From Candidatus Dojkabacteria bacterium (GTDB lineage: Bacteria; Patescibacteriota; Dojkabacteria; B142; JAFGFJ01): 64,000 nucleotides of DNA. Below are positions 4,528 through 50,448 of this stretch, piece after piece. The DNA lies in the NCBI GenBank assembly GCA_016931155.1, contig JAFGFJ010000006.1:385419-449418 (forward strand), given 5' to 3'. The notes beneath the pieces were generated by a model. The model searched no databases. It saw nothing but the letters and a program-made list of their open reading frames with translations, and was not told the DNA's origin. How positions within the stretch are numbered: the stretch's first letter is position 1; the number at the start of each line of letters is the position of its first letter. The position numbers were made by a program, and so were the translations under genes.

Positions 4528-4604
4528 TGGAGGTCACGGCGGGATTCGAACCCGCGCATAAGGGTTTTGCAGACCCTTGCCTTAACCAGCTTGGCTACGT
4601 GACC
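4528..4604 (-). tRNA. tRNA-Cys (anticodon GCA)
   Basis: Reverse complement ggtcacg...ctGCAaa...cgggttcgaatcccg...cgtgacc-t-cca. The U73 discriminator is typical of tRNA-Cys. Confidence 0.75.
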
Positions 4605-33964: not shown

Positions 33965-35287
33965 TTAGTTTTTCTCAACTTTGTGAGCTTGTGTTTCGTG
34001 TGCATTGAAAAACTCTATTGCCCTGGCAAGCTCGGGGTAATTTTTGGAGTATTCTTCAATTGAAATATCTTGCTTCCATGCAGTACATGCCTGAACAACG
34101 GCTGCTGCTCCTGCTTTTGTTCCATCCGGGTGGCTATGCACTCCTGCTCCCATTGTGATAATGAAATCAGTATGGCCTATAGCCTCAATAAACGGACGGA
34201 GTAGAACGGGATTCATACCCCCTGAAATAATCGGATTTGTTTTTTTTAGATCTCCCCAATCCTGTTCAAAAAAGTGCCCCTTTGTGATTTTTCCAAGAGC
34301 CGAATTGGCTGAGGTCACATCTTCACCTTGTGAACCGGACATTTTTCCGATCCCCGAGGTGCCTGTGTGAATACCTGATGCGCCAGCAAGGCGGGCTAAT
34401 TTTGTAAGCACCAGAACTGAAAAGCCAATGGGGTTTTCTTCACGAGTGAATGCTCCATGTCCTGCTCTATGGAAGTGAAGATAGACATCCGGATAACGTC
34501 TTCTGATTGTTTGAACGGCTGTCCAGCCTGCAGTAATACCGTCTACGAGAAAAGCGTAACTATCCGGTTTCATAATCTTTTGTACATAGTCCGCCCGTTC
34601 AATCATTGTGTCAAAATCTGCGGCAGAAACATTGAAGGAATGAACCTTTGTTTGTCCGGTTTCAGTTTCTGCCTTATCCATGGCTTCCTTTACAAGGTCA
34701 ACTGTTTCAGTGAATGGTGCAAAATCCTGATCTGCCTGAGGTTCATCGTTTTTGACAAAGTCTCCACCGCCAGCCCAGAAGTTGTAGCAGACGTCTGCAT
34801 ATTCGGCGGATTTAAGGCCGATTTTGGGCTTGACGATAGTGCCCAAAATCGGCCTATCATAAGCGTTCAAATACTTCCTCATCTCATCGATCGTATAACT
34901 CGATCCGTCATAGTTTTCTAACATGTCAGGCGGGAACGAAATATCAAGAAGTTTTAGTCCTGCAAGTGAGCTCATTCCAAAGACGTTCCCGGCCAGGAAT
35001 GTAACAATATTTTGGACATTACCTGCGCGATCAAACATCCTCCATGGATATGCTATATATACAAGCCCTTTATCTTCTTCCACTTTATAGACAACTCCTC
35101 CCATTGAATCAGAAAATTCTGTCGCAGTATTTACCTCAATATTTGAGCCGTTTGAAGATTCTGCTGCAATTTCTGAGGCCGCATCAAGAAGGTCTGTTTT
35201 TCCATAGGGTATTACTTTGAAAACTGCAAGCAGGTGGGTTCCTTTTAGTACTTCTTCATTCCCGAGTTGTATGTATTTTTTCTGCAT
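33965..35287 (-). CDS. rbcL: ribulose-1,5-bisphosphate carboxylase large subunit, form III-like
   Basis: GGDFVKNDEPQ active-site motif, KPKIGLK (with the lysine that is carbamylated) and the GGMNP C-terminal loop. At 440 aa with no small-subunit gene nearby it is archaeal/CPR form III-like. Confidence 0.85.
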   Translation of the reverse strand: MQKKYIQLGNEEVLKGTHLLAVFKVIPYGKTDLLDAASEIAAESSNGSNIEVNTATEFSDSMGGVVYKVEEDKGLVYIAYPWRMFDRAGNVQNIVTFLAGNVFGMSSLAGLKLLDISFPPDMLENYDGSSYTIDEMRKYLNAYDRPILGTIVKPKIGLKSAEYADVCYNFWAGGGDFVKNDEPQADQDFAPFTETVDLVKEAMDKAETETGQTKVHSFNVSAADFDTMIERADYVQKIMKPDSYAFLVDGITAGWTAVQTIRRRYPDVYLHFHRAGHGAFTREENPIGFSVLVLTKLARLAGASGIHTGTSGIGKMSGSQGEDVTSANSALGKITKGHFFEQDWGDLKKTNPIISGGMNPVLLRPFIEAIGHTDFIITMGAGVHSHPDGTKAGAAAVVQACTAWKQDISIEEYSKNYPELARAIEFFNAHETQAHKVEKN

Positions 35288-35413: not shown

Positions 35414-36286
35414 TTATTCCCTTTGATTAACCGGTTGAATATAACTGAATTCCGGTTCATCCTCCTCTGGTGGAGTCTTACTGTCAAATTTTCTTGCGAG
35501 TTTTTCAAGTTGTCCTTTTAGAAGACCAGGCAAGTACCTGGAAAGAAAGGCATAGTTCTTGGCTAACTGTGGTATTATCACTTTTTCTTTGTCGGTAAAT
35601 ATTGCATTATAAGTTGCTTCCGCCACTTCTTCGGCTGTAATTGCATCTTTTTCCAACCCCAAATCCTTCAAGTCGATGTTTGCATTTTCTTTAGAGAAGA
35701 ATTCAGTATGAACTGCACCAGGATGGATTGTTGTTACTTTGACATTATGTTGTTTTAACTCCAGTCTGATGGTATCAGCAAAAGCGGTAATACCCCATTT
35801 TGTTGCCGAGTATACTGACCATTGAGGTAATACGATAAGACCGGCAAGAGAAGAGGTAAGAATCAGATGACCGAATTTCTGTCGAATCATTATCTCGGAT
35901 GCAAGTTTTATCGTCGTTATGGAACCAATTAAATTGACTCCGACAATGGCTTTTATTTCATCAATAGTAAGTTCATGTATGTTCCTAACAAAACCTATAC
36001 CTGCGTTTGCCACTACAACGTCCAATACTCTGCCGTTCTCTGTTGCTTTCAGAAATAAGTTTCTTAAATCATTTGCGTTAGTTACATCTGTTACAACTAT
36101 GATTGGTTTGCCTCCTAGTTTTGTAACGTTTTCTGCTACCTCAGCAAGCTCATCTGACCTTCTTGCGGCAAGAACTATTGTTGCACCATCTTTGGCACAT
36201 TTTAAAGCAATAGCCTTACCTATTCCACTTGAAGCTCCTGTGATTAAAATTGTTTTGCCTTTTAGTTTCATTTTGTGTAATAACAA
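35414..36286 (-). CDS. short-chain dehydrogenase/reductase (SDR)
   Basis: ITGASSGIGKAIA, NAG and YSATK motifs. Confidence 0.75.
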   Translation of the reverse strand: MLLHKMKLKGKTILITGASSGIGKAIALKCAKDGATIVLAARRSDELAEVAENVTKLGGKPIIVVTDVTNANDLRNLFLKATENGRVLDVVVANAGIGFVRNIHELTIDEIKAIVGVNLIGSITTIKLASEIMIRQKFGHLILTSSLAGLIVLPQWSVYSATKWGITAFADTIRLELKQHNVKVTTIHPGAVHTEFFSKENANIDLKDLGLEKDAITAEEVAEATYNAIFTDKEKVIIPQLAKNYAFLSRYLPGLLKGQLEKLARKFDSKTPPEEDEPEFSYIQPVNQRE

Positions 36287-36545
36287 CTTAAATTTGAGTA
36301 CAGTATAGGGAATTTTAATAGAAAGGTAAAAGGTACGATATCTATCAGATCAAATACGACAAACTGCTGTCTCATTTGGAATCTTCATATTAATCCCTAA
36401 ATGAGACCTTTCATTATTGTAAAAGTTCACATGGAAATGATGCGTAAAATTCAATTGCGGTTCTCGTCTGTTTCGGTATCATCTTAGAATTGGAAAAGAC
36501 TACAAACGGTGGTGTGTCCGTCAGTGCGAGGAAGTCAATACGGTG

Positions 36546-36911
36546 TTAGGCGAAGAAGCTCATCGACAAGATTATTGTTCCAATGCCAGAAATAATATTT
36601 AGGTAGATCAGTATGTTTGAACATATGGAACTAAAATGTTCTTTTCGTCTTACAATTACTTTATGAACAATAAATGGAATTATTCCTCCAATTCCCATTA
36701 TTATCCCGATAATCGCTCCAATCAATGTAGTTTTTTCAATTTCCAGTAATCCAATTAGGATTACAAGAATTATCGGAATATGAATCAACAAAAAACCAGT
36801 AATCTTTCCGGGAAGTTTTAGTAATTCCCATTCTCTTTCATAAGCTGATTCAATTTCATGTAAGAGTAGTAATGTTGCATTTATTATATAGAAGATAGTA
36901 ATTAATTTCAT
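36546..36911 (-). CDS. small integral membrane protein (121 aa)
   Basis: Four hydrophobic helices. Confidence 0.45.
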   Translation of the reverse strand: MKLITIFYIINATLLLLHEIESAYEREWELLKLPGKITGFLLIHIPIILVILIGLLEIEKTTLIGAIIGIIMGIGGIIPFIVHKVIVRRKEHFSSICSNILIYLNIISGIGTIILSMSFFA

Positions 36912-37065
36912 ATTTCAATCAACTCCAAATTGAACCGTCCGCTTTTTCGCCTACCGTTTCTTAATAGCTGAAGTTCTGACGGCGGAATTGGCTCGTTCTT
37001 TTTATTAAATCACAAACACTTTTTAAAATACAAGATATCGATTATCACCGTTCGAGTCGGGATTT

Positions 37066-37105
37066 GGACGGAAGAATTTCACATTCCTTTAAAAAATATT
37101 TGAGT
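37066..37105. repeat. intergenic repeat family copy A (…GGACGGAAG…ACATTCCTTTAAAAAATATTTGAGT)
   Basis: The 25-mer ACATTCCTTTAAAAAATATTTGAGT is identical at 37081-37105 and 39568-39592, and degenerate at 40524-40568. Each copy lies ~165-175 bp upstream of a minus-strand start codon. Confidence 0.7.
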
Positions 37106-37153
37106 GAAATTCTGGAGTCGGCTATTAAGTGTTAGACGATGTAAAAAGAAAAT

Positions 37154-37609
37154 TTACCTCTGAAGCTCGTTATAAAAGTTCTCTAATTCTTCAACCCTTT
37201 TGTTAGTAATCCTTTCGATACAACTCCACTCTATAAGTGGTTGCATACTACCTTCTTCGTATTGTTTGCTTTCAAGTTTACATGTTTGATCGCGATATTG
37301 CTTCCAAGAATCTTGGGATGAGATAATCAGATTGTCATTATTAACTTTCTTTAGGTCTGTTAAGATTTTTTCTAATCTTGTAATTTCTTCTTCTGCTTTG
37401 TTTTTAGCACAAATATTCATTTCAGATTGGGACTTTTGTTCTTTGCAATCGATTGCATTATTATCAGTGTCTACTTTATTGAGTAAGTGTATAGGTCGTT
37501 GTTGTGTATCTTTAGCTTTGTTTTCACTATCGTTTTTATTTTTATCTTTAGTGCACCCAAACAATAAAACAGATGCCAACAGAAGAATGATTAGAAAAAA
37601 TCTTTTCAT
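37154..37609 (-). CDS. DUF1311/LprI-like lipoprotein
   Basis: Lipoprotein signal ending ...LLFGC, and a C-terminal W-x-x-Y-R-D-x-x-C motif typical of DUF1311. Confidence 0.5.
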   Translation of the reverse strand: MKRFFLIILLLASVLLFGCTKDKNKNDSENKAKDTQQRPIHLLNKVDTDNNAIDCKEQKSQSEMNICAKNKAEEEITRLEKILTDLKKVNNDNLIISSQDSWKQYRDQTCKLESKQYEEGSMQPLIEWSCIERITNKRVEELENFYNELQR

Positions 37610-37777
37610 GGTATTTCGTATTAATGTTTTCTTTTTATTTCGCCTATGTTCAAGAGTATGCGAAGTTATTTCTGTAGCGATAGCGGAACAAAAAACTTGG
37701 GTGAAGGAATTTTTTACTCCTTATTAATATTACAAACGAAAAATTACTGAACTGCATACTCTTTGTTATGTGATGTG

Positions 37778-38359
37778 CTAATTTTGCGACCTGTAATACT
37801 CCTTCGCTTTTTTAGTAACAGACAAAATGAAGCCGCTTTTTTCTTCCGTATATTTGACTCTATCATTTGCATGTTTATCTGAAAGTTTTCTCTTCAGATT
37901 ATCATACTGTTTAGCGACGTCAGGAAATTGCCGAAGATATTCTCTAAAATAGAGCCTGTCCCATAATTCAGAATCTGCCTCAACCATATGAATATGATGT
38001 GTACGTTTACCTTCTGAATTGCGCTTGATAAACCAGGCGTAGTAGGGCGGATCATCGTCACCAAATACAGGACGCCAAAAGTACTCATATCCTTCGGCTT
38101 CTAAAATAGGCACAATTTGCTTTTTAGTTTCTTCAAGACTTGAAACTTCCACTAAAATATCAATGATAGGTTTAGCAGAAAGTCCTGGAACCGCCGTACT
38201 ACCAAAATGCTCAATTCTTTTAACGATATTCTGAGGCAATTTCTTGAGTAAAAAAGCGGCTTCATCTTCAAACATTTTAGGCCACACTAAATCATAAGGA
38301 ATGATTGATATTTCCTCTTTCACTAACTCTTGTATTCGTTTTTTCATTTTATCTTCCAT
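37778..38359 (-). CDS. GrpB/UPF0157-family protein
   Basis: HIGSTAVPGL-AKPIIDI motif. Confidence 0.6.
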   Translation of the reverse strand: MEDKMKKRIQELVKEEISIIPYDLVWPKMFEDEAAFLLKKLPQNIVKRIEHFGSTAVPGLSAKPIIDILVEVSSLEETKKQIVPILEAEGYEYFWRPVFGDDDPPYYAWFIKRNSEGKRTHHIHMVEADSELWDRLYFREYLRQFPDVAKQYDNLKRKLSDKHANDRVKYTEEKSGFILSVTKKAKEYYRSQN

Positions 38360-38369
38360 AAAAGTAAAA

Positions 38370-38798
38370 TTATTCCTTGATTTTATTAATTATTGATAAA
38401 AAAAATTCTTTATCTTTATGGTGTGTGAGCAACTCAGCTACTTCGTTTTTACTAACCCATCTGGCTTCGGGATTTTCCGGGTCTATCGGACTAAGTAAGG
38501 ATTGGTTCGTCTTGAATAGAAACATAAAGATTGTTTTTTGCTCAGAAGTGTCATCGCCGCCATCAAGGGCAATCTTGGGCCTCTGATAATTGCCCAAATC
38601 TGCCAATAGTTCGAGCTGATTAATACCGGATTCTTCGTATATTTCTCTTTTTGCGGCATCAAGTGTGCTCTCTCCTTCATCAATATGACCTTTGGGCAAC
38701 GACCAAGATTGCCCTTTTTGATTTACCACAAGAACCAATTCGGCTTTATTGATCACCACACCACCTGCTGATTTAGTTTGTTTAATGTTGTTTTCCAT
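38370..38798 (-). CDS. NUDIX hydrolase
   Basis: Nudix box GHIDEGESTLDAAKREIYEESGI. Confidence 0.8.
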   Translation of the reverse strand: MENNIKQTKSAGGVVINKAELVLVVNQKGQSWSLPKGHIDEGESTLDAAKREIYEESGINQLELLADLGNYQRPKIALDGGDDTSEQKTIFMFLFKTNQSLLSPIDPENPEARWVSKNEVAELLTHHKDKEFFLSIINKIKE

Positions 38799-39004
38799 AT
38801 TGCAGAGTAAAGATAAAGAGTTTTTTATAATTTTGCCTGAATTTCATATAACGTCTTGCGAGTTCAAGAAGTTGACCGCAAGTTTTATCAACAAGTAACT
38901 ATTCTCAAAAATATATTTCAAGTCCTAAAATAAATCAAACATGATTATAAATATCGCGGTCAATTTGGGTGAAGCGAGTACTCGAGCGAAACCTTGAACT
39001 CGCT

Positions 39005-39029
39005 GTTGTGCGATGTAATCCAAAATCCA
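39005..39029. repeat. second repeat family, inverted copy (GTTGTGCGATGTAATCCAAAATCCA)
   Basis: This is the reverse complement, with 3 mismatches, of TGGATTTTGGATTATGTCGTACAAC at 39415-39439. The 14 bp core TAATCCAAAATCCA is exact. Confidence 0.65.
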
Positions 39030-39034
39030 TATAT

Positions 39035-39397
39035 TCAATTTTCAATTCTTTTTTTAGTAAATCCTATAAATATATAGAGAACACCTATTAAAAATGGAAT
39101 AACCATATGCAATGTTAAATCTCTCTCAACTATAAAACCTATAATGAATCCAATTAAAATAGGTATTGATGTTAAAAAACCACCAATCTTTTCGAATTTC
39201 CAACCTAACCCCAAACCAATAAACATCAGTAGAAAAACCGTTAACCAAACATTATCCCAAATAGAATATTCTGATTTAATGAACGGTAATGGATTTCCAT
39301 ATCCAAAATAAAAGGGAAGTCCAAAGATAATTACTGCAGTTGCTAAAATCCTTGTTACCCATTTTATTATTTTGTAGTCTCTTTTTTTTAATTTCAT
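39035..39397 (-). CDS. small integral membrane protein (120 aa)
   Basis: Three to four TM helices. The gene is flanked by a 14 bp perfect (about 26 bp imperfect) inverted repeat. Confidence 0.45.
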   Translation of the reverse strand: MKLKKRDYKIIKWVTRILATAVIIFGLPFYFGYGNPLPFIKSEYSIWDNVWLTVFLLMFIGLGLGWKFEKIGGFLTSIPILIGFIIGFIVERDLTLHMVIPFLIGVLYIFIGFTKKRIEN

Positions 39398-39414: not shown

Positions 39415-39441
39415 GGATTTTGGATTATGTCGTACAACGTT
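39415..39441. repeat. second repeat family, direct copy (TGGATTTTGGATTATGTCGTACAACGTT)
   Basis: It shares an exact 16-mer TATGTCGTACAACGTT with 40388-40403 and forms an inverted repeat with 39005-39029. Confidence 0.65.
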
Positions 39442-39550
39442 TCGGCATATCTGATGTTTTCGCCGAATTTGTTAATCAATACTTGAATATTAGCAGGTTC
39501 TTCTTTATTTCGAAAGACCATTGATTGACCGCCGAGCAGAGGCGAAAATA

Positions 39551-39592
39551 TGGGCGGAACAAAAAGGACATTCCTTTAAAAAATATTTGAGT
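39551..39592. repeat. intergenic repeat family copy B
   Basis: GGGCGGAACAAAAAGG followed by ACATTCCTTTAAAAAATATTTGAGT, identical to copy A. A related GCGGAACAAAAAA fragment is at ~37673. Confidence 0.7.
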
Positions 39593-39640
39593 CCTTTTTG
39601 TGTAGCCAGATATGCGTTGTTATACGCTGTAAATCAAATT

Positions 39641-40375
39641 TTACCCCTCTTTTATGCACTTAATAATTAAGAAAGGAGGAAATTCTTGTTTATATTTCTT
39701 CATCTTAGGATCAGTGATTACTTTTCCATCTCTATGTTTCGTGTATATTTCATGAAACCCAGAAAGTAAAAAACCTGCTGAAAATAAATTTGCTAAATAA
39801 AATCCGATTGAACGATGATAATGTGGATTGATATCATTAAACGTTATCACGCTTTCCGTCCTATAGCTTTTCATTTTATTGTAAATTTGCTCTTCAGCCT
39901 CTTCCCGAATTACATCATCTGTAATAGGATTTAAGATCGAAAAAATCAAATTTCCGCCTTTTTTAATAACACGACTACATTCATTGATTGTATCTTTAAT
40001 CGTTCTTATATCATGAAATGCCATATTTGAGACAATAAAATGAAATTTGCGGTCTTTAATATGTTCAAGAGCAGATGAATCTCGAATGAAATATTTAATA
40101 CCTAAAGGTTTTTTACTTTCGTGATCTTGGGCAATTTTAATTAGTTTATCAGCAATATCTATACCAGTTACTATAGCTCCTTGCTGAGCCAACCACCTTG
40201 AAAAATATCCCTGTCCACAAGCAAGATCCAAAATTTCCTTCTTTCTTATATTGCCGAGTAATTCTTTTATAATCGGATTAAGATATGTCTTATGGTATAA
40301 ATCACCAGTTTCTCCGACGCTTCGATTGTATTCATCGGCAATATTATTCCATGTTTTTTTATCATTAGATTTCAT
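39641..40375 (-). CDS. class I SAM-dependent methyltransferase
   Basis: Motif I ILDLACGQGYFS with post-I acidic residues. Confidence 0.7.
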   Translation of the reverse strand: MKSNDKKTWNNIADEYNRSVGETGDLYHKTYLNPIIKELLGNIRKKEILDLACGQGYFSRWLAQQGAIVTGIDIADKLIKIAQDHESKKPLGIKYFIRDSSALEHIKDRKFHFIVSNMAFHDIRTIKDTINECSRVIKKGGNLIFSILNPITDDVIREEAEEQIYNKMKSYRTESVITFNDINPHYHRSIGFYLANLFSAGFLLSGFHEIYTKHRDGKVITDPKMKKYKQEFPPFLIIKCIKEG

Positions 40376-40383
40376 AATGTCTT

Positions 40384-40403
40384 CGTAAAATTTGATTTAT
40401 GTC
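40384..40403. repeat. second repeat family, partial direct copy (GATTTATGTCGTACAACGTT)
   Basis: Exact 16-mer shared with 39426-39441. It lies 9-28 nt upstream of the methyltransferase start codon. Confidence 0.6.
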
Positions 40404-40523
40404 GTACAACGTTCATTTGTATGCGAGGTTTTGTGCCGTTTCATCGCATCTTTTCAGTATATTATCACATTCGTTCAGAAATGGAAGTTGCTTTGTATTA
40501 GCACTTTCGGAGGCACAAAATCT

Positions 40524-40568
40524 GGGTGGAATGAAAAAGACATTTCCTTAAATTTTTACAAAAGAGTC
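40524..40568. repeat. intergenic repeat family copy C (degenerate)
   Basis: GGGTGGAATGAAAAAGACATTTCCTTAAATTTTTACAAAAGAGTC. Confidence 0.55.
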
Positions 40569-40633
40569 TTTTTCATGGAACCGCATACAAATTGTTATAG
40601 GATGTAAATTTTATTCGTCGTTGTATTACCACC

Positions 40634-41269
40634 TTACATTATTATCTCGTCGCCACTACCGATAAGCTGAATTTTTTCGTCCCTTATTATCATAGCTTGA
40701 TCATCGTTCAAAATACGTATAGGTAAATCCAAATCCTTCGACTTTTCCTCCAATAGTTCTTTCATCTCAGAAACATAGTGAGCTTTCATTAAAAAAGGTG
40801 TTAGCTCCATGCCTTTAAAATCTGTTATTCCACAACGATCAAAACCTCGTTTAGACCAAGTAGCCATGATAATTGAAGGACATGCGATGTATGAACCAGC
40901 ACTTGTCCCAATGTAAACAAGCCCTTTAGGTAGTAATTCTTTGACTACTTCTTCAAAACCGCTTTCTCTAACAGATTTTAAAAGATAGAAAGTATTACCT
41001 CCTTCGACATATACAACATCATAATCAGAAAGCACCTTTTTTAATTCCTCTTTGGATTTGCCGGTTATATCGTACTCCGCGTAAGAAAAATTCAGCTTAT
41101 CCATCGATTGCTTTTGCCGTTCTATGTAATCAGTACTAGGAACCTTTTTAGATGCTGTTGTTACATAAAGAATCTTCGATTTAGAAAGAGGCTTAGGCAA
41201 AAAATCATCTAACTTATTGGCGGCGATTAACTTTCCGCTTGATGTAAGTATTATCGTTTTCATCTGCAC
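40634..41269 (-). CDS. peptidase S51 (PepE-like) family protein
   Basis: GTSAGS nucleophile-elbow motif in a class-I glutamine-amidotransferase-like fold. Confidence 0.55.
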   Translation of the reverse strand: MQMKTIILTSSGKLIAANKLDDFLPKPLSKSKILYVTTASKKVPSTDYIERQKQSMDKLNFSYAEYDITGKSKEELKKVLSDYDVVYVEGGNTFYLLKSVRESGFEEVVKELLPKGLVYIGTSAGSYIACPSIIMATWSKRGFDRCGITDFKGMELTPFLMKAHYVSEMKELLEEKSKDLDLPIRILNDDQAMIIRDEKIQLIGSGDEIIM

Positions 41270-41409
41270 TAAGAATAAAATTTATTTCCTATAACTGGTT
41301 ACTATGCGAACTATTTTCGTAATTAATACACCAATCTGTATGTTTTGCGAACTAATCTGGTATAATAACCTTAATCTAATTATCAGCATAATATCAAGAT
41401 CATATTGCT

Positions 41410-42224
41410 ATGAACAGCGAATTGCATAAAACCACTCGTGAGCTTAAAATTCGTGACTACAGTCCCAAAACCATCAATAGTTATATGAATGGTCTCAAGA
41501 ATATTTTTCTTTTAGAATAGTGAACTTAAATCAACTGGATACTGATAATATCAAGGACTTCCTGCTCTACTGCAAAGATAAAAATATTTCAGCCAAAACG
41601 AGAAACCAGTATCTTAATGCAATCAAATTCTACTACTACAAGGTTATTAATGTCAGAGATAGAATAGAAATCAGATCTGCCAAACGAACTAAAAGTCTTC
41701 CTATTGTATTAAATCGATCCGAGATTAAAGAGTTAATAAATGCTACAAATAATCAAAAACACAAATTGTTGCTCTCAGTTGCATATGGAGCTGGTTTAAG
41801 GGTCAGCGAAGTTGTAAGTTTGAAAGTTAAAGATATAAATTTTCAAAACTTGACACTTCATATCAAGCAGTCAAAAGGAGATAAAGACAGAATAACTATT
41901 TTCCCCAATAGCATTATAGATAGTTTAATTGCAATCACTGGTAGTAAAAGTAGAAATGAATACGTTTTCTCAAGCGAAAAAGGTGGGAAACTGACTACAC
42001 GTACTGCACAGAAGGTATTCTCTAATGCACTAAAAAGGTCAGATATTAAAAAAGATGCCTCATTCCATACTCTCAGGCACAGCTTTGCTATACATTTACT
42101 TGAGAATGGAACGGACGTACGTTATGTACAGGAGTTACTTGGGCATCAAAATATAAGGACAACCCAGAGATATACCCACGTTACCAATCCTCAGCTTAGA
42201 AACATTAAGAGTCCTTTAGTTTAG
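41410..42224 (+). pseudogene. tyrosine recombinase/integrase (XerC/D-like) interrupted by a frameshift
   Basis: A 36-codon ORF (ATG at 41410; ...IRDYSPKTINSYMNGLKNIFLLE*) encodes the start of the N-terminal SAM-like domain. The remaining 234 codons (41520-42224; C-terminal R...HxxR...Y catalytic region ending HTLRHSFA...RYTHV) are in another frame. The frames overlap at 41481-41520 across a TTTTTCTTTT run. Confidence 0.65.
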
Positions 42225-42593
42225 AAAATATAAATTTAAAGTTACTGTAATTTCGAGGATTTCTGAAATTTTATTCTTATGTCTTTCTAATATACCACCA
42301 CTAATTACAACAGCATTCGTATGAAGTTGATATGAATGCTAATAGTAATAAATTTGTTTTTTTGTTTTGGATTTTAGGCAGAGTGGTTTAGGGGCGAATG
42401 CCCAAAATTTGATACTCCTTATTCTTTATTCTTTTGCATAAACACTTTCAATGCTTATGTCAGCTAAAAAAACAGGTAGGAAATCATAACCATTAGAAAT
42501 ACTGTCTTGGTTTGCTGCTTCATTATTTCCCCTCATTTAAATTAAGAAAATTTTTCACACGTTCCTTATTTTTAAAAAGACCCTTTTCCTAAC

Positions 42594-42683
42594 TGGCGGA
42601 GAGGGCGGGGTTCGAACCCGCGTGGCGCTTTCGCACCGCGTCGCTTTCCAGGCGAGCCCTTTAGACCGCTCAGGCACCTCTCC
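42594..42683 (-). tRNA. tRNA-Ser (anticodon GGA), long variable arm
   Basis: Reverse complement ggagagg...ctGGAaa...gcgggttcgaaccccgc...cctctcc-g-cca. G73 is the discriminator base. The 3' end faces the integrase gene. Confidence 0.75.
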
Positions 42684-42779
42684 GCTTCGGCTTTATTACA
42701 TCAGCCTTACCGCTCCATGATTTTATCACAAAAACTGTCTCCATCTGGATCGTTTTGGGCTCGTTGTTTTTGGATCGGT

Positions 42780-44384
42780 TTATTGATCCGGTGTTGAGGT
42801 GGGAGTAGGAGTAGGCTCTGCAGGTCCAACTACGATTTTTATATTTTCTTTGTATGGACTTAAGCTTATGCCAAGGGAATCAGGATCTGTATAAACCTTA
42901 TCAGTTTCGAAGTATTCTTTAAGAAAATCAATAGTTTCAGGATTTTTCCCGTTAGTGAAATCATATATTCTTATACCGGTCTTTTCTGCTTTCTTCTCAG
43001 TCAGATAGGTGATAATTCCAAGCGGGGCCTCATGGTTTTTGAGAGCGGTAGCCTTGTCATCGGCAGGATAGCTTGCCCCCGTTCTATTTGAAATAACCAG
43101 ATGTGCCTGCTCATTGTAGAGAGCGCCCCACTTCCACAAACCTTCAAGCTCTTCCTGTATGGCTTTATATGTTTTATCTCTCGCTTCTATGACATAACCT
43201 CTATTTTGATCAGTTGGCGGGTGATAAATATATTTACCTGAGCCTCCGAAGTTTGGATCAAGTACAATACTTATTGGATCCTTGTCTATCTTGTTAATAA
43301 GATCGAGTCCAGCAAGCATATCTTCAGATGTGATGTTGACTTCAACATTTTTGCTGATTGTTTGTAGAATGTCCCAGTACTTTGTTGCCCTGTCTTTAAG
43401 TGAAATTTCCTCGGCAAATGCTTTTTCTTTCAGGGCAGTGATAATTTCCTGTTGTCTTTCTCCTCTACTGAAGTCGCTGGAAAGCGAGGAATCTCCAGAA
43501 TAAAGATATCTAAATCTTGAATAAACCAGTGCCTTTTCTCCGTCAAGGTGATTTTCTCCTTTCTGAAACTCATATCTTAGCCAGTGATTTGGATTTTGTG
43601 CAGTCGGATTGTCGTTGGGGTATTTTGCAACAAAACCATCCTCAAGGTAAATATTTACTCCACCAAAAGTATCGACTACATCTTCTACTGCTTTAAGTTT
43701 TACTACGGACGTATAATGTATCGGCTGTCCGATAATATCTTCTACCACTTGTTGAAGAAGTACTATGCCATTATCCACGTCGTTTCTGATCTCACCTGTC
43801 ATATACACAGAATTGATTTTCATAGAAAATGGCCCTGCTATGACCTGTCCCGTTTCGTCTTTTATCTTGAATGTAACCCAAAAATCCCTGGGAATTGATA
43901 TAAGCATTGTCTGCCCTGTCTCATGATTAAGTCTGGCAACCATTATCGTATCAGTATTTTGAAGATCGCTGCCTCTCCCGGATTCTCTGGTATCGAGACC
44001 CACAATCAGTGCGTTGGTATATCCATTATGTTGCATAAGTTGGGGTCTGAATGCTGCCGTCCAGCAGGATGGGTCAAGAATATTTGAGCAAGTGTTGTTT
44101 ACTCCTGCTTTTCCATCATTCCCGGAAATTCTTTTCTGGAGCTCACTCCATCTGTATGCTGCGAATCCAAAAGTGCAAAAAACAATAATTATTAAAAGAA
44201 AAAGTAAAACTCTTTTCTTAGTAAAGAAAATTTTTCGTGTGCCTTGATGTCTGTAAGACGGAGTCTCCTGGGATAGTTGGTGGGGTTTTGTATTCCTGTT
44301 CAATTCTTTCCTTGGAGTATTTACTGCTTGCAATTGTGTCAGCTCTCCTTCTTTGTTGTATGTTCCTATTCTTACTGTCTTCAT
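42780..44384 (-). CDS. LytR-CpsA-Psr (LCP) family cell-envelope phosphotransferase
   Basis: N-terminal TM, then the LCP core ALIVGLDTRE...SDTIMVARLN...LISIPRDFWV. Confidence 0.75.
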   Translation of the reverse strand: MKTVRIGTYNKEGELTQLQAVNTPRKELNRNTKPHQLSQETPSYRHQGTRKIFFTKKRVLLFLLIIIVFCTFGFAAYRWSELQKRISGNDGKAGVNNTCSNILDPSCWTAAFRPQLMQHNGYTNALIVGLDTRESGRGSDLQNTDTIMVARLNHETGQTMLISIPRDFWVTFKIKDETGQVIAGPFSMKINSVYMTGEIRNDVDNGIVLLQQVVEDIIGQPIHYTSVVKLKAVEDVVDTFGGVNIYLEDGFVAKYPNDNPTAQNPNHWLRYEFQKGENHLDGEKALVYSRFRYLYSGDSSLSSDFSRGERQQEIITALKEKAFAEEISLKDRATKYWDILQTISKNVEVNITSEDMLAGLDLINKIDKDPISIVLDPNFGGSGKYIYHPPTDQNRGYVIEARDKTYKAIQEELEGLWKWGALYNEQAHLVISNRTGASYPADDKATALKNHEAPLGIITYLTEKKAEKTGIRIYDFTNGKNPETIDFLKEYFETDKVYTDPDSLGISLSPYKENIKIVVGPAEPTPTPTSTPDQ

Positions 44385-44386
44385 TT

Positions 44387-44821
44387 TTACTTCCCTGCCG
44401 AATCAAGTATTAGATTTACTAAAGAGTCTGCAAATTTATTTTTTTCTCTAGGTATATGAATAAACCTGATGGATTTGAAACTTCCCGAAACGGCATCAAC
44501 TTTCTTCTTTAAAATCTTCATCTTGTCGTCTTTAACTCTGTACTCACCATTCAGCTGCTTAACAATAAGCTCACTGTCCAGAAAGCATTCAATATTTTCT
44601 CCAGCCAGCCTTTCGGCTATTTTCAGTCCAAGGATAAGTGCCTCGTACTCAGCCTGATTGTTTGTTGAGTTACCAAGGTAATCAGCGTCAAACTTCAGTA
44701 GATCATTATTTTCTGCATTAAACACAAAGGCAGCAGCAGAAGCCGGTCCTGGGTTCCCTCTTGCTCCACCATCTGAATATATTTTTAAATCCATATTATA
44801 TTTGTCGTTTATGGAGTACAA
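44387..44821 (-). CDS. rnhA: ribonuclease HI
   Basis: KIYSDGGARGNPGPASAAAFV with the DEDD catalytic arrangement. 144 aa. Confidence 0.8.
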   Translation of the reverse strand: MYSINDKYNMDLKIYSDGGARGNPGPASAAAFVFNAENNDLLKFDADYLGNSTNNQAEYEALILGLKIAERLAGENIECFLDSELIVKQLNGEYRVKDDKMKILKKKVDAVSGSFKSIRFIHIPREKNKFADSLVNLILDSAGK

Positions 44822-44905
44822 AGACCATTTTTAATGGCTTGTATAGATTATAACAAGATGCGACAAATTAAAAGAAAAATTGCTATAATTGCCCACTCAA
44901 ATAAT

Positions 44906-44976
44906 TGCGGGATCGTCTAATGGTAGGACAAGTGCCTCTGAAGCACTCGATCCAGGTTCGAATCCTGGTCCCGCAA
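44906..44976 (+). tRNA. tRNA-Gln (anticodon CTG)
   Basis: tgcggga...ctCTGaa...ccaggttcgaatcctgg-tcccgca-a. No CCA is encoded. A TATAAT box lies at 44884-44889 upstream. Confidence 0.75.
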
Positions 44977-46331: not shown

Positions 46332-48056
46332 ATGAACACAATTGAGGATTTAGGTAAAAACAGATCAACACAACATACTATAGGAGAGCTGGCTGTTAAT
46401 ATATTTAGGAGCATTTTAACTACTAATGAGAAAGAAGTAATTTTCACAGAAACTCCTAATCAACACGATTATGGTATCGATGGTCAATTACAAATATTCA
46501 ATGCAACTATTAAAGGGAAGCAACATTCAGGAATTTATTATCATGTTCAGATAAAAGGGGAAGAAGTACTTAAACTTAATAAAGATAAAAGTTACATAAA
46601 GTATCCCTTAAGCCTCAGAGATGCTAGAAGTCTTTTAGAAATTACAAAAATGCCAACTGCATTTATTTTAGTAGATACAACTAGTAGAGAATGTTATTGG
46701 TTTGATCTACAAACAAATGATATGTTTAAACAGAATTACCAGAAAAGCATATCAAAGTATCTTAAAGCTAAGAAGAAAGTAGAAGATCCGTCAATAACTA
46801 TTTCAATTCCCACTGCAAATAAACTTCCTTCAACGTGGGATGAATTACTTAGCTATTTTAAAAATGCCGCAACAAGTCTTAGCAAAAGAGAAAATATTAG
46901 CAGTTTAAAATCTATGTCTTTAGATAAGGCATTACTTGAAATTGATGATTTTGAAGGCACATTGGATTTACCTGGGATGGATAAGATGTATAGAAATGAG
47001 CAAGCACTTCCATATCCGGGAACCATACTTTCTGTTAGCAATTGCAAAGGTAAGGTAATAGACTATGTTCCGGGTAAAAACTGTGATCCCTCGAATATCC
47101 CTAGTGTTAACTTTAAAGTGAAGTTTAAGAAAGACGATCAAAAGATTGATATTTTTCAAGAAGTTATTAAAAAAGGTAACGGCTCAATAACCTTAGAACC
47201 TGAAAATATTGAAGAACTTGTTTCCAAAACAGGTGATAGAGAACTTTTTCAAATATTTGAAAAGTCAAATGTATCCCTCACGATCTCACCCGTGAGATCA
47301 AATATCAGGCAGAATATTATACATATTGGGATACCTGGGAAAAGTGATTCATTAACCCTCAATGTAAATACCTGGAGGGAACGAAATGAGATAGTAATTA
47401 AGAGTAATTCAAATATTCCTCAGCTCGTATCGATAGATGCTAGGTTTGATATCGTAACTAAGCAAGGGAAAATGAATTTTCAAGTGAATACAAGCGAAAT
47501 AACTAGTATAAAAGAAGAAGTTGAGATAACAAATTTCTATAAACAAGTTACAGATTGCTTAGACTTCTATATCGATTATAAAGGAATCAGGAAGAAAGCT
47601 TTCAATATATCGGTTCCAAAACATTTAGGTATAAGTGAAAAATTCATAGAAGTAATAGAAGCACTTAGTTTAATAGAAGAAATTACAAAAGCCTTCATTC
47701 CTTACCCTCTTCCAGATAGAATTACAGTAGCAGACTCATATAATATTATTTGGATACGTGATTTGATTTCTAAAGGTAAAGCAAACAAATCGTTAACTAT
47801 TGATTTTACTCTTGAGTCTGATCCCCCTACTGAAGTCACTGAAGGGAATTATGTCTCATTCAGAGCAAGCCCAGCAGAATTTAATATCTTTGGGAAACCT
47901 TATGTTTTATCCAACTATTTACTCGAAATTCAGGGGAAGATTATTAAATTAGAAAAGAATAAAGGAAAGAAAAATTCCTATAAGATTACAATCGAGAATG
48001 CTGAGCATATATTAAAACTTAGTGAAGAAGAATCAAATGATACAGGGAACAATTAA
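46332..48056 (+). CDS. large hypothetical protein with an N-terminal PD-(D/E)xK nuclease-like (DUF4365/Mrr-like) motif
   Basis: 574 aa. The first ~80 aa contain GELAVNIF...NQHDYGIDGQLQIF...YYHVQIKG, a D...D...(V)QxK restriction-endonuclease-fold signature. The rest has no recognised motif and no P-loop. Confidence 0.6.
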   Translation: MNTIEDLGKNRSTQHTIGELAVNIFRSILTTNEKEVIFTETPNQHDYGIDGQLQIFNATIKGKQHSGIYYHVQIKGEEVLKLNKDKSYIKYPLSLRDARSLLEITKMPTAFILVDTTSRECYWFDLQTNDMFKQNYQKSISKYLKAKKKVEDPSITISIPTANKLPSTWDELLSYFKNAATSLSKRENISSLKSMSLDKALLEIDDFEGTLDLPGMDKMYRNEQALPYPGTILSVSNCKGKVIDYVPGKNCDPSNIPSVNFKVKFKKDDQKIDIFQEVIKKGNGSITLEPENIEELVSKTGDRELFQIFEKSNVSLTISPVRSNIRQNIIHIGIPGKSDSLTLNVNTWRERNEIVIKSNSNIPQLVSIDARFDIVTKQGKMNFQVNTSEITSIKEEVEITNFYKQVTDCLDFYIDYKGIRKKAFNISVPKHLGISEKFIEVIEALSLIEEITKAFIPYPLPDRITVADSYNIIWIRDLISKGKANKSLTIDFTLESDPPTEVTEGNYVSFRASPAEFNIFGKPYVLSNYLLEIQGKIIKLEKNKGKKNSYKITIENAEHILKLSEEESNDTGNN

Positions 48057-50448
48057 TATAAAATCCAGACCAATTAAACTGGCTTTTCTAATAAAGGCTA
48101 ATAGTCAAAGTTCTCTCAGAAAGGCTATCCAAATTAATTCTGTTCTTTGGGGAGGGATGTTTAATCCTATTATTCCAGTATACAAAAATCTAAGAAAACA
48201 TCTTAAGGAGCCGTACTTTAATAAGCCAAGTGCGCGCGAATTTGTTGAAGGGTGTATAGATAATTTTGATCCCGACTTTATTGTAGTTGTTGATAAGTGT
48301 GATGTTAGCAATATAAAGTTAGGAAACAGAAAAGTTATCTCAGATCTAGAGCTAATTAAAGAATTGGATCAAGGTGAATTTGAATGGGGGGTAGGTATTT
48401 ATGATATTTTGCATCATTTATTAAAAACTGAGTTAAAGTACAAAAGACGTAAACCTCTAGAAATATTGTTCCCACAACTAAATGGAATAGGCTATACAAA
48501 GTTATTCTTAGAATCAGTTTTTGGTAAATTGCCAAAGCCAGTTGAAGATAGTATCCGAAATGACTGGAGTGAAGCACTAGAAGCAAAATTCCCTAAATAT
48601 AACTTGTCTGATTACGTTAAGTATCGATCTGACGCTCTGTTCACAAGACGGCTAACTAACTTGTATTTTGAGACAGACAACCCAGGTAGGAGATTTCGAG
48701 AAAACATTATCTTTCTGATGGATATAGGTAAGTTTATTGATATTGTCGATTATTGGAATCTTAGAGCTCTTGGACTAAATGTGCTTCCTGTCCCAATCCA
48801 ATTAAATAAGGATAAATCCACAATAACTCTTGCAGAGGAATTCATTAAGGATAATTACAATAAATATAAAAACCATTATGGCGAAATGTATACGCATGTG
48901 ACTATACAGATAAGTAGAAGCTTGCAACCCGAACAAAGTAAGAATTTTGCCAGTCAGCTCACGTATGTCAAAGGTACTGGGAATGGCATTACTGTAAGTA
49001 ATGCATTCCCAAGAATTTGGGATGCTTGGGCTAGAGATAAGGATGGAGCCGAATCATGCACTTTAGAGGCTGAAGAAGAAGAATACGATATATCCGAAAG
49101 TTCTGAGAGCTTAAATCTAAAAGGTACTTTCCCGATATTCTTAGATAAGAAGAAATATGGTCAGGGCTTTAGAGTAGCTAATGATTTAAACTTTAGAATC
49201 TACAGCAACAAGGAGCTTTATGCTGAGGTTATTCCAGAAACCGATGTAAAACTTGCAAGAGCAATCGGGCATATAGGAGAGGATGACAATATAAGATTCT
49301 CGCGCAGTGGTATTAAATATTATCCAGATTCAATTGGCAGAAGGTTATATTTTGACTTACCAAAAGGAGAAGATGTATTTAAGGAATGGCTAGAAATTCA
49401 AGGGTATACTAATATTGAAGTTTCTACCCCAGGTAAGATAGCAAAACAAATCTATAAGCATCTTGGTGGTATGAGATATCTTGGACTATTGAGTACACTC
49501 GGAATCATAGGGTTTCTCAATGAGATGTCTGAAATAAGAAAAGAATCAAAAGACGGTAAAGAAGCCTATAGAGATAGCAAATGTATGAACATTGAGGAGG
49601 TGAATGAAAAACTCAGCAAGATTGGTGCAAAATTAAAATTTCCATTGTCTGCCCAAAATCTTTTATACAATTTGGTTCAATCAAAGATCATTGAGCTTGG
49701 AGTGGAGATTCAATGTGATATTTGTAGTAAGAATTCTTGGTATGAACTTAAAACATTGGGTCAAAAAATAAAATGTTCTAAATGTTTTGGTGAATTTGAA
49801 ATCCCAGCATACAATCCTACAAAACTACTTAGTTGGGCTTATAAGACTATTGGACCTTTTAGCCTTCCACAACAAGCGGATGGAGCGTATACGGTTTTGT
49901 TAACATATAGATTCTTTTCTCAGCTTTTGGATGGGCTAACTACACCGCTTATGAGCTTTGCTGGAGAAAAAGACGGTAAGCCATTTGAAGCAGATTTAGG
50001 CTTATTTTTTAGAAGTTCTAAATACAGGATAGAAAGTAATGATGTTGTATTCGCAGAGTGTAAGACTGGAAATGACTTTAAACAAAGGGATATTGATAAA
50101 ATGGTTTCGCTAGGGAAAGATTTTTCAAAAGGTATATTAGTTTTCGCAACACTTAAAGAATCTTTATCTGATGAGGAAATAAAAATGCTTAAGGTCGTAG
50201 TAGAGAGAAATAGAAAGAGGTGGCGGACAAAGAAAACATATAATTACATTGTAATCCTAACTGCAACAGAACTACTTTCTGACTGGCATCCAGAACAAGT
50301 ATGGAAAGATAAGGGAGGTTTTCGCCAAAAATTTGCTCATCATTATAGTGAGAATGAGGAATTATGGGATGCTACTGTCCAAATTTATCTTGGAGTTGAT
50401 TCTAGAGATGAGTGGTTACATCAATACCTCTCTAAAAAAAGTAAATAA
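48022..50448 (+). CDS. large hypothetical protein with a C-terminal zinc ribbon plus PD-(D/E)xK-like motif
   Basis: 808 aa. A GTG start at 48022 (or ATG at 48037) overlaps the upstream stop by 35 or 20 nt. CDICSKN...CSKC is a four-Cys zinc ribbon, followed by EADLGLFF...VVFAECK (D...ExK). Confidence 0.6.
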   Translation: MKKNQMIQGTINIKSRPIKLAFLIKANSQSSLRKAIQINSVLWGGMFNPIIPVYKNLRKHLKEPYFNKPSAREFVEGCIDNFDPDFIVVVDKCDVSNIKLGNRKVISDLELIKELDQGEFEWGVGIYDILHHLLKTELKYKRRKPLEILFPQLNGIGYTKLFLESVFGKLPKPVEDSIRNDWSEALEAKFPKYNLSDYVKYRSDALFTRRLTNLYFETDNPGRRFRENIIFLMDIGKFIDIVDYWNLRALGLNVLPVPIQLNKDKSTITLAEEFIKDNYNKYKNHYGEMYTHVTIQISRSLQPEQSKNFASQLTYVKGTGNGITVSNAFPRIWDAWARDKDGAESCTLEAEEEEYDISESSESLNLKGTFPIFLDKKKYGQGFRVANDLNFRIYSNKELYAEVIPETDVKLARAIGHIGEDDNIRFSRSGIKYYPDSIGRRLYFDLPKGEDVFKEWLEIQGYTNIEVSTPGKIAKQIYKHLGGMRYLGLLSTLGIIGFLNEMSEIRKESKDGKEAYRDSKCMNIEEVNEKLSKIGAKLKFPLSAQNLLYNLVQSKIIELGVEIQCDICSKNSWYELKTLGQKIKCSKCFGEFEIPAYNPTKLLSWAYKTIGPFSLPQQADGAYTVLLTYRFFSQLLDGLTTPLMSFAGEKDGKPFEADLGLFFRSSKYRIESNDVVFAECKTGNDFKQRDIDKMVSLGKDFSKGILVFATLKESLSDEEIKMLKVVVERNRKRWRTKKTYNYIVILTATELLSDWHPEQVWKDKGGFRQKFAHHYSENEELWDATVQIYLGVDSRDEWLHQYLSKKSK

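Follow-up and report, generated by a model that had tools for sequence, protein, structure and literature searches.

In canonical integrons, such as those of class 1 (IntI1 with attI1) and of Vibrio cholerae (VchIntIA with its VCR sites), the integrase gene diverges from an attI site and from a co-oriented array of cassettes, each one a small promoterless open reading frame (ORF) followed by an imperfect palindrome with RYYYAAC and GTTRRRY-type ends, and crossover takes place at G|TT. Inactivated integrases are common when such integrons are sedentary. An additional IntI-specific domain is treated as defining and as necessary for these integrases (PMC9668308; PMC4792948), and both papers cite Messier and Roy (2001) for the necessity of this domain, the I2 helix around patch III, for activity. 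The extra domain recognises the extrahelical bases of folded attC sites, and Escudero et al. (2016) state the chicken-and-egg problem that results from this (PMC4792948). Here we describe a locus with the same layout and a recombinase that does not have this domain, in a 64,000-nucleotide stretch of a Candidatus Dojkabacteria genome (assembly GCA_016931155.1, contig JAFGFJ010000006.1, positions 385,419 to 449,418), which we call the window and number from its first letter. We are rather confident that the split tyrosine recombinase gene at 41410-42224 on the plus strand encodes the integrase of a chromosomal platform of gene cassettes, sedentary and integron-like, in Candidatus Dojkabacteria (Patescibacteria, or Candidate Phyla Radiation, CPR), and that it has been inactivated by a 1-nt deletion. 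We found no published description of cassette arrays with such an integrase in the literature on integrons in CPR/Patescibacteria.

The integrase gene is present as two ORFs in different frames, as the original prediction had noticed. The 5' piece (41410-41520) encodes 36 aa ending in NGLKNIFLLE and a stop, and the 3' piece (41520-42224) encodes 234 aa in the -1 frame, annotated from a GTG at 41520, while its frame is open from 41481 with a TAG at 41478-41480 preceding it. These two ORFs are one tyrosine recombinase gene, knocked out by a 1-nt deletion at 41500/41501. When they are joined, the resulting 271-aa protein is an IntI/XerA-like simple tyrosine recombinase that matches Phage_integrase with 3.8e-44, and the Phage_int_SAM_4 match at residues 7-81 rises to 43.5 bits from the 26.1 bits, below the cut-off, of the 234-aa ORF alone. 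Therefore the 36-codon ORF is the true start of the core-binding domain, and the proviso attached to the original prediction, that this ORF might have no similarity to integrases, falls away. Full-length homologs of about 270 aa cross the frame junction gap-free in alignment, so that both the Pfam matches and the alignments spanning the junction uphold the proposal of a single XerC/D-like recombinase of about 270 aa split by a single-base frameshift. The 234-aa ORF is a 100% match to a Candidatus Dojkabacteria protein at NCBI. The catalytic residues R131, K156, H220, R223, H246 and Y255 are invariant in alignments of 12 and of 53 sequences that include the window protein or its homologs.

The position of the lesion could be set precisely and it is not the T-homopolymer to which the original prediction had assigned it. 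The closest intact relative is the L001 locus, whose protein (P0002) has 84% amino acid identity to the window integrase. DNA alignment with L001 puts a single-base gap between 41500 and 41501, in the Lys/Arg codon before TAT (CTCAAGA-ATATTTTTC in the window vs CTCAAGAGGTATTTCTC in L001), and the window as assembled around the deletion reads AAGAATAT. A tblastn comparison with the closest intact homolog places the frame switch at 41496-41508, the two segments overlapping at residues 30-33. From this overlap, the DNA alignment and the invariance of Tyr32, the deletion site is mapped to 41497-41503 (AAGA^ATA, plus strand), in the codon before Tyr32. The T-run itself (41504-41508) is read in the downstream frame as TAT TTT TCT TTT, that is Y-F-S-F as in the homologs (family consensus KYFSFK), Tyr32 is invariant in 53 homologs and L001 does not have the T-run there, thus the deletion must precede Tyr32. 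A repair made in the T-run instead would place an Ile at this invariant position. The same comparison bears on the idea, also raised originally, that a full-length integrase is made by programmed -1 frameshifting or slippage. A T-rich stretch (ATATTTTTCTTTTAG) does lie inside the frame overlap and a slip in the P-site is conceivable there, but the close homologs are all single-frame (as are all of the at least 120 homologs among the matches listed), L001 has TATTTCTCT at this point so that the slippery run is not conserved, and a slip in the T-run would again yield Ile in place of Tyr32. We regard this explanation as extremely improbable.

A more serious question is whether the deletion exists in the organism at all. 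It is a single-base deletion beside a short A-run (AAGA^A), which tells against a real lesion, as does the good state of the remaining ORF: the other 234 codons are undamaged with all catalytic residues kept, and the attI and the three attC sites proximal to it, described below, are intact. However, in a separate k-mer assembly of the read set SRR13394437 (Logan) a contig of 5,346 bp covers window 39586-44931 at 100% identity and has the frameshift too, although the two assemblies perhaps come from the same reads. None of the ten further adjacent-ORF candidates in the window resembles a split gene, nor do any of them have a split domain. The window copy also carries R191K and T228I, two changes at positions where the 53 intact homologs do not vary; a leave-one-out test finds two or more changes of this kind in only 4 of these homologs. 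Finally, three distal attC sites have lost the GTT of their crossover triplet. An artefact of sequencing or assembly, or a minority variant, in an organism whose integrase is intact therefore seems unlikely to us, and we favour a genuine and recent inactivation with reasonable confidence. No relative more than 84% identical is present in the protein database, and a sister genome in which the gene is intact or the site empty was therefore not found. The product of the frameshifted copy would be truncated after 36 codons, and at best a 234-aa fragment without the first two core-binding helices would be made. Because of this truncation the cassette array in the Dojkabacteria window is probably frozen.

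Judged from its sequence, the intact enzyme of about 270 aa is a member of a large Patescibacteria-wide family of simple tyrosine recombinases, whose nearest solved structures are VchIntIA and the archaeal XerA. By sequence the best match among solved structures is VchIntIA (2a3v, 3.4e-38) with XerA a close second, and 2a3v is also the best fold match (Foldseek E-value of 8e-16, template modelling score of 0.77) of an AlphaFold2 (AF2) model of P0002 with a mean confidence (pLDDT) of 90. According to Pfam and the model the protein consists of a SAM-like core-binding domain and a catalytic domain alone, without the N-terminal arm-binding domain of phage-type or ICE-type (integrative and conjugative element) integrases. 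The Foldseek alignment has 317 columns for 271 residues, and the alignment to 2a3v falls into two blocks (query 8-166 on target 8-170, and query 199-270 on target 246-317). Between them, the 32 residues 167-198 of the integrase replace the 75 residues 171-245 of VchIntIA (IntI4), and the AF2 model has just short strands between the helices at 167-177 and 197-211. The IntI-specific insertion of about 43 aa, the I2 helix, is accordingly absent as judged from the alignment and the model. The best NCBIfam match is XerA_Arch (212.1 bits, cut-off 220), and the other Xer models are likewise below their cut-offs (XerD 181.8 vs 329.6, XerC 181.7 vs 335, XerS 68 vs 267).

The attI site lies upstream of the integrase ATG at 41284-41354 on the minus strand, which is the strand of the cassettes. 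Its conserved core is dif-like and reads TTCGCATAG-TAACCAG|TTATAGGAAAT at 41310-41284, 115 nt upstream of the ATG; the right side begins TTATAGG and the crossover falls between G41295 and T41294. A second TTCGCA repeat is found about 40 nt nearer to the integrase (41352-41347). The core (TCGYATARWAACSAG|TTA) recurs about 100-118 nt upstream of the integrase in at least 31 related loci and essentially once per locus. Between the window and L001 the DNA is similar at 41290-42227 alone, from the crossover point through the integrase stop. Among the related loci at least seven independent metagenome contigs (L010, L014, L039, L045, L059, L070 and L082) end exactly at the ...GTTA of attI, these being the first bases of the contig, and 33 of 82 loci have a contig end less than 700 nt upstream of the integrase. 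Breaks at the GTTA are the signature of populations that differ in their first cassette, and natural populations are heterogeneous exactly at the attI crossover. With this assembly signature one could look for active platforms and retrieve alternative first cassettes from assembly graphs.

Starting at attI, every ORF of 36.5-41.3 kb has the minus-strand orientation, pointing away from the integrase gene as in canonical integrons, and the functions encoded are small accessory ones. The ORFs are organised into six or seven cassettes, each with one or more small ORFs and an attC-like hairpin. Cassette 1 spans 41294-40410 and encodes a Peptidase_S51 protein (40634-41269), followed by the 197-nt site s1 at 40404-40600 (CTATAAC-A-ATTTGTATGC...GCATACAAAT-GAAC-GTTGTAC). 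Cassette 2 encodes an S-adenosylmethionine-dependent methyltransferase (39641-40375) and is followed by s2 (39432-39625, 194 nt, with R'' GTATAAC and R' GTTGTAC), and cassette 3 encodes a DUF7670 protein (39035-39397) followed by s3 (38846-39011, 166 nt, R'' GCACAAC and R' GTTATAT). Cassette 4 (37778-38798) has two ORFs, NUDIX (38370-38798) and GrpB (37778-38359), ahead of the 131-nt s4 at 37641-37771, whose crossover triplet is damaged (R' reads ATAGGCG, not GTTAGGC). The LprI-like lipoprotein of cassette 5 (37154-37609) precedes the 189-nt s5 (36949-37137), also with a damaged R' (GGTAGGC), and the DUF6713 protein of cassette 6 (36546-36911) precedes what is tentatively a degenerate attC remnant, s6, at 36463-36551. 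The scans missed s6, which was read by eye: its R'' GCCTAAC is intact, its L boxes match at 6/10 and its R' (AGACGAG) has no GTT. A short-chain dehydrogenase gene at 35414-36286, with no attC after it, may be a terminal seventh cassette. All of these features are on the minus strand.

The original prediction had an element extending leftwards through 36-41 kb and called this region repeat-rich. Such an element does extend leftwards, and the repeats in it are the attC-like sites of the cassette array. The first 25-28 nt of each cassette are complementary to its last 25-28 nt, a relation seen as the inverted repeats I1, I3 and I4 of cassettes 1, 2 and 3 (in cassette 1 the start and end form 28-nt inverted repeats that are 86% complementary). 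This complementarity is expected if crossover takes place at G|TT and the unit circularises. While the integrase-proximal s1, s2 and s3 are intact, s4, s5 and s6 on the distal side have lesions in the GTT crossover triplet, where GTTAGGC or GTTAGAC would be expected. These lesions are at 37641-37647, 36949-36955 and about 36463-36469, and the adjacent AGGCG or AGAC is kept in each case. They could be random decay after the loss of the integrase, or the result of selection that locks those cassettes in place.

To see this layout in more than one genome we relied on a genome scan for relatives of the integrase, of which the best 80 loci come from different genomes that are mostly Patescibacteria, with identity roughly tracking taxonomy, and on site scans of 82 related loci (20 kb each) plus the window. 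On the coding strand the sites follow the plan TTACATC-[RYYYAAC]-A-[10-nt L'']-GGTTCG...AAACWTC-[L']-RAAC-[GTTRKRY]-GAAAT, and the window spacers fold as long imperfect hairpins. The consensus of 44 sites has RYYYAAC and GTTRRRY ends (for example GCCTAAC...GTTAGGC, with GTTRTAY as R' in some) and lengths of 84-197 nt, a variability of length that is also found in canonical sites. A stringent scan found 53 sites upstream of the integrases on the cassette (minus) strand, compared to none upstream on the other strand, none downstream on the cassette strand and a single one downstream on the other strand, despite the larger amount of sequence downstream. When detection was by motif only, ignoring five variable stem positions, there were 62 matches on the minus strand compared to zero on the plus strand. 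These five free stem positions are complementary throughout in 38 of 48 sites, with a mean of 4.67 compared to 2.27 for shuffled partners. Given that 28 distinct 5-mers occur, the stem is conserved as a structure, beyond its sequence, as it is in canonical integrons. A permissive hairpin scan (8-bp stem, 1 mismatch) was uninformative, since its roughly 27 matches per strand across the window are at chance level. Intergenic palindromes of the repetitive extragenic or terminator kind were considered as an alternative for these sites and rejected on the grounds of their exclusive association with one side and strand of the integrase and of the evidence on cassette boundaries.

This evidence on boundaries comes from pairing and from a shared cassette. 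The 17 nt after the GTT of one site are complementary at 9.7/17 positions to the 17 nt preceding the AAC of the site that comes next, compared to 5.8/17 for the same site and 6.06/17 for random sites (p = 1e-5). L001 and L015 have a Peptidase_S66 cassette in common (79.8% identity over 1264 nt), which is the first at attI in L001 and the second, after an attC, in L015. The identity begins exactly at GTTATATTC and, after the ORF, includes the hairpin downstream as far as its L'-R' junction. Therefore each cassette consists of an ORF and the attC that follows it, has its borders at G|TT and moves between arrays. A boundary at R'', which the inverted polarity of the bulges had suggested, was rejected: the attC downstream of the shared ORF travels with it and the upstream attC does not. 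The geometry of the locus, the position of the crossover, the modularity and mobility of the cassettes and the covariation of the hairpins are in these respects those of an integron. The platform is widespread and apparently active in Patescibacteria. When the window cassette proteins were compared by tblastn to all loci, only relatives of the short-chain dehydrogenase were matched, so the window's own cassettes are not shared with the sampled arrays. In L007 the dehydrogenase homolog is the first cassette, on the minus strand, and in L001 it is on the plus strand, in both cases upstream of the integrase.

How recombination would proceed can be proposed by analogy with known systems. XerCD, which is without an I2 domain, recombines the folded single-stranded hairpin of CTX phage with a double-stranded dif-like site, one strand being exchanged and replication resolving the product. 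If the present platform works as IntI does and as XerCD does on CTX phage, its integrase would bind double-stranded attI and folded single-stranded attC, exchange one strand at the G|TT border, where the central region meets the TTA... arm, and leave the junction to be resolved by replication. The exchange of a single strand is supported because from one site to another the central parts are not the same, yet they covary within each site. Since the enzyme has no I2 domain and falls below threshold on the integron profiles, its activity on folded attC sites can only be inferred.

Several observations weigh against the integron reading. The hidden Markov models (HMMs) of integron integrases stay below their cut-offs (TIGR02249 at 203.7 vs 265 bits, NF011946 at 133 vs 435), and the integrase is without a domain that has been reported as necessary for IntI activity. 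Additionally, the sites differ in polarity from canonical ones: the unpaired RAAC spacer and a W-T bulge are on the L'-R' arm, opposite to the canonical extrahelical bases, which are on the R''-L'' arm opposite the AAC triplet of the recombined bottom strand (Nivina 2016, PMC5027507). A scan of 36.2-42.8 kb for sigma-70 promoters and terminators gave 24 promoter-like sites where 27 are expected, which is chance level. The recurrent tRNA beside the integrase, discussed below, has no explanation in an integron model. Finally, given the similarity of the attI core to dif, the enzyme might primarily be the host's Xer recombinase.

This last point leads to the rival explanation that deserves the most attention, in which the recombinase is a single chromosome-dimer resolvase with an adjacent dif and the cassettes are integrase-less elements exploiting it, in the way of integrative mobile elements exploiting Xer (IMEX), CTX phage or pdif modules. 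E. coli dif is GGTGCGCATAA-TGTATA-TTATGTTAAAT, and when compared by eye to the window attI (AGTTCGCATAG-TAACCAG-TTATAGGAAAT, with a 7-bp centre) it matches at 8/11 positions in each arm. The simple Xer architecture without the I2 insertion, the XerA_Arch model as the best NCBIfam match, the presence of one copy per genome among the best 80 loci and the rough agreement of identity with taxonomy all fit a resolvase. Smyshlyaev et al. 2021 (PMC8138268) list Xer-related recombinases of the Candidate phyla as presumed Xer substitutes, and the present family may be their 'Cand' group. However, the gene is broken in the window without other signs of genome damage, and in the records of two complete chromosomes the locus is found about 12% and 98% of the way along. 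This is not the mid-record position that a terminus would have on the assumption that numbering begins at the origin, and it is suggestive at best. What has been inserted are single ORFs in a common orientation, with hairpin sites, and not self-contained mobile elements flanked by 28-bp dif repeats, and the differing central regions of the sites argue against classical two-strand Xer recombination. Overall we find the resolvase explanation unlikely, though it overlaps with the one we favour, as the platform would still work like an integron, and its enzyme may itself be a single-recombinase Xer beside its dif, or derive from one.

Like XerS/difSL, XerH/difH and archaeal XerA/dif, the present locus has a simple tyrosine recombinase (about 270-350 aa in these modules) and a core site immediately beside its gene, and XerA is its second-best structural match. 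Their sites resolve chromosome dimers and have no cassette arrays, whereas here an array is present and the protein is below all Xer HMM cut-offs. CTX phage and IMEX at dif share with the window a dif-like site and a Xer-type recombinase without the I2 domain, but the elements here are single-gene cassettes without replication or mobility genes of their own, stacked one-way beside the recombinase gene. In Acinetobacter plasmids, pdif modules are discrete gene modules that have inversely oriented Xer-type sites at their borders and occur in various contexts, and the cassettes resemble them in all of this. They differ in that pdif are 28-bp double-stranded sites used by the host XerC/XerD, with no dedicated integrase or attI and no hairpin covariation.

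Compared to canonical integrons, with which the platform shares the layout given at the outset and an integrase closest in sequence and fold to VchIntIA, the differences are in the host (Patescibacteria), in the recurrent convergent tRNA downstream and in the missing insertion of about 43 aa with the low integron HMM scores that go with it. The sites differ as well: the R stem of an excised cassette would here reach about 17-25 bp, the R-L spacer is 1 nt on one arm vs 4 nt on the other where canonical sites have 5-6 nt on both, and the bulged bases are on the opposite arm. Archaeal integrons (Ghaly et al. 2022, PMC9668308) are similar in being found beyond the classical bacterial phyla, in metagenome-assembled genomes, with short co-oriented ORFs separated by attC, but archaeal IntIs are reported to have the IntI-specific domain (PMC9668308) and the present family is without it. 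If its attC sites were recognised, the window array, with its broken integrase that is undetectable by an IntI model, would probably be reported as a cluster of attC sites lacking an integrase (CALIN), from which it differs in that the cognate integrase gene and attI adjoin it. Standard tools probably miss the platform or call it CALIN because the IntI-specific HMM cannot fire.

What is new here is an integron-like platform with canonical G|TT cassette boundaries, covarying attC-like hairpins and a dif-like attI, yet with a Xer-sized integrase that has no I2. A natural system of this kind answers part of the chicken-and-egg problem of IntI, and the question is directly testable through intact relatives such as P0002. 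It would also reveal a mechanism of gene capture in the reduced genomes of the CPR. The wider proposal is that Patescibacteria hold an ancient and still active integron lineage, with an integrase without I2 and dif-like attI and attC, as a living intermediate between Xer/dif and IntI/attC cassette capture; for us the case for and against it is evenly balanced. If it is true, hairpin cassette sites are usable, and so could have evolved, without the domain thought to be necessary for them. A frameshifted integrase beside a tRNA is ordinary on its own, and the local copy is freshly broken.

This tRNA had led to a different explanation for the locus. The tRNA-Ser(GGA) gene at 42594-42683 is on the minus strand, convergent with the integrase and 369 nt past its stop, and its 3' end at 42594 faces the integrase as originally described; an Rfam search of 35-43 kb found this tRNA alone. 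The arrangement was taken as that of a genomic island integrated into the tRNA 3' end, with 36-41 kb as the island body. In favour of this, in 17 of 60 related loci a minus-strand tRNA follows the integrase stop at a distance of 6-1130 nt, most commonly a tRNA-Ser, with Pro, Ala, Trp, Gln and Val among the other types (for example L007 8454-8529, L078 10818-10907 and L060 1216-1291). The convergent tRNA is a real trait of the family, by our estimate far above chance, and the similarity of the window to L001 stops at the integrase stop codon. An island would, however, be expected to carry a direct repeat of the tRNA-Ser 3' segment to the left, as was suggested with the prediction, and on the left of the integrase the window does not repeat the tRNA body over 11 nt or more. 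What the window does have are 11 nt downstream at 58908, an inverted 11 nt at 43487 and T-loop matches such as that to tRNA-Cys at 4545. In 8 related loci a search within 7.6-10 kb gave nothing beyond 11-12-nt matches at chance level. A second attI-like site near the tRNA was searched for and none was found, the protein has no phage/ICE-type arm-binding domain, and the region to the left consists of individually bounded cassettes beginning at attI and not of a single island. The facing tRNA stands as an observation, and the island at its 3' end we consider very unlikely.

Some further observations concern the integrase family and its arrays. Integrases 49-63% identical are present on contigs that are not binned as CPR, namely as Micrarchaeota (L038), Gammaproteobacteria/Pseudomonadales (L010, L016, L058, L062 and L070), Bdellovibrionales (L042 and L053) and Actinomycetota (L017). 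These are either mis-binned CPR contigs or cases of transfer of the platform outside Patescibacteria. Within the window array an exact 25-nt repeat, ACATTCCTTTAAAAAATATTTGAGT, occurs at 39568-39592 in s2 and at 37081-37105 in s5, in the variable loops, with a related copy at about 40540-40565 in s1. This repeat folds into a small hairpin inside the loop, and it is the reason for the end of the Logan contig at 39586. A promoter-like CTGACA-18-TAGAAT (10/12) at 41656-41627 on the minus strand is inside the integrase gene and faces the cassettes; its position recalls that of Pc, which lies inside intI1, and we take it as a hint at most.

In other genomes a conserved non-coding element of about 200 nt is found on the minus strand upstream of the integrase, beginning exactly at an attC R' (GTTATACGCAATTCAAAAAATATTTTTCT) and followed by unrelated ORFs in different genomes (L016 at about 5700-5900, L023 at about 5650-5840, L036 at 8066-8297 and L064 at about 1-256, as well as L022 and L047). 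The copy in L036 has no match in Rfam. The element contains TTGATT...GATAAT-like hexamers and may be a promoter or leader module carried by cassettes.

Two neighbouring regions complete the description of the window. Directly beyond the end of the array, a gene similar to the RuBisCO large subunit (33965-35287, minus strand, both Pfam domains with 1.6e-98, GC content of 0.45) is probably the first core gene on the far side of the array. On the other side, just beyond a tRNA-Gln, the region 46332-50448 on the plus strand has a GC content of 0.29-0.34 and encodes a DUF4365 protein of 574 aa, overlapped by a following 808-aa ORF without a Pfam match, and could be a defence or restriction-like island.

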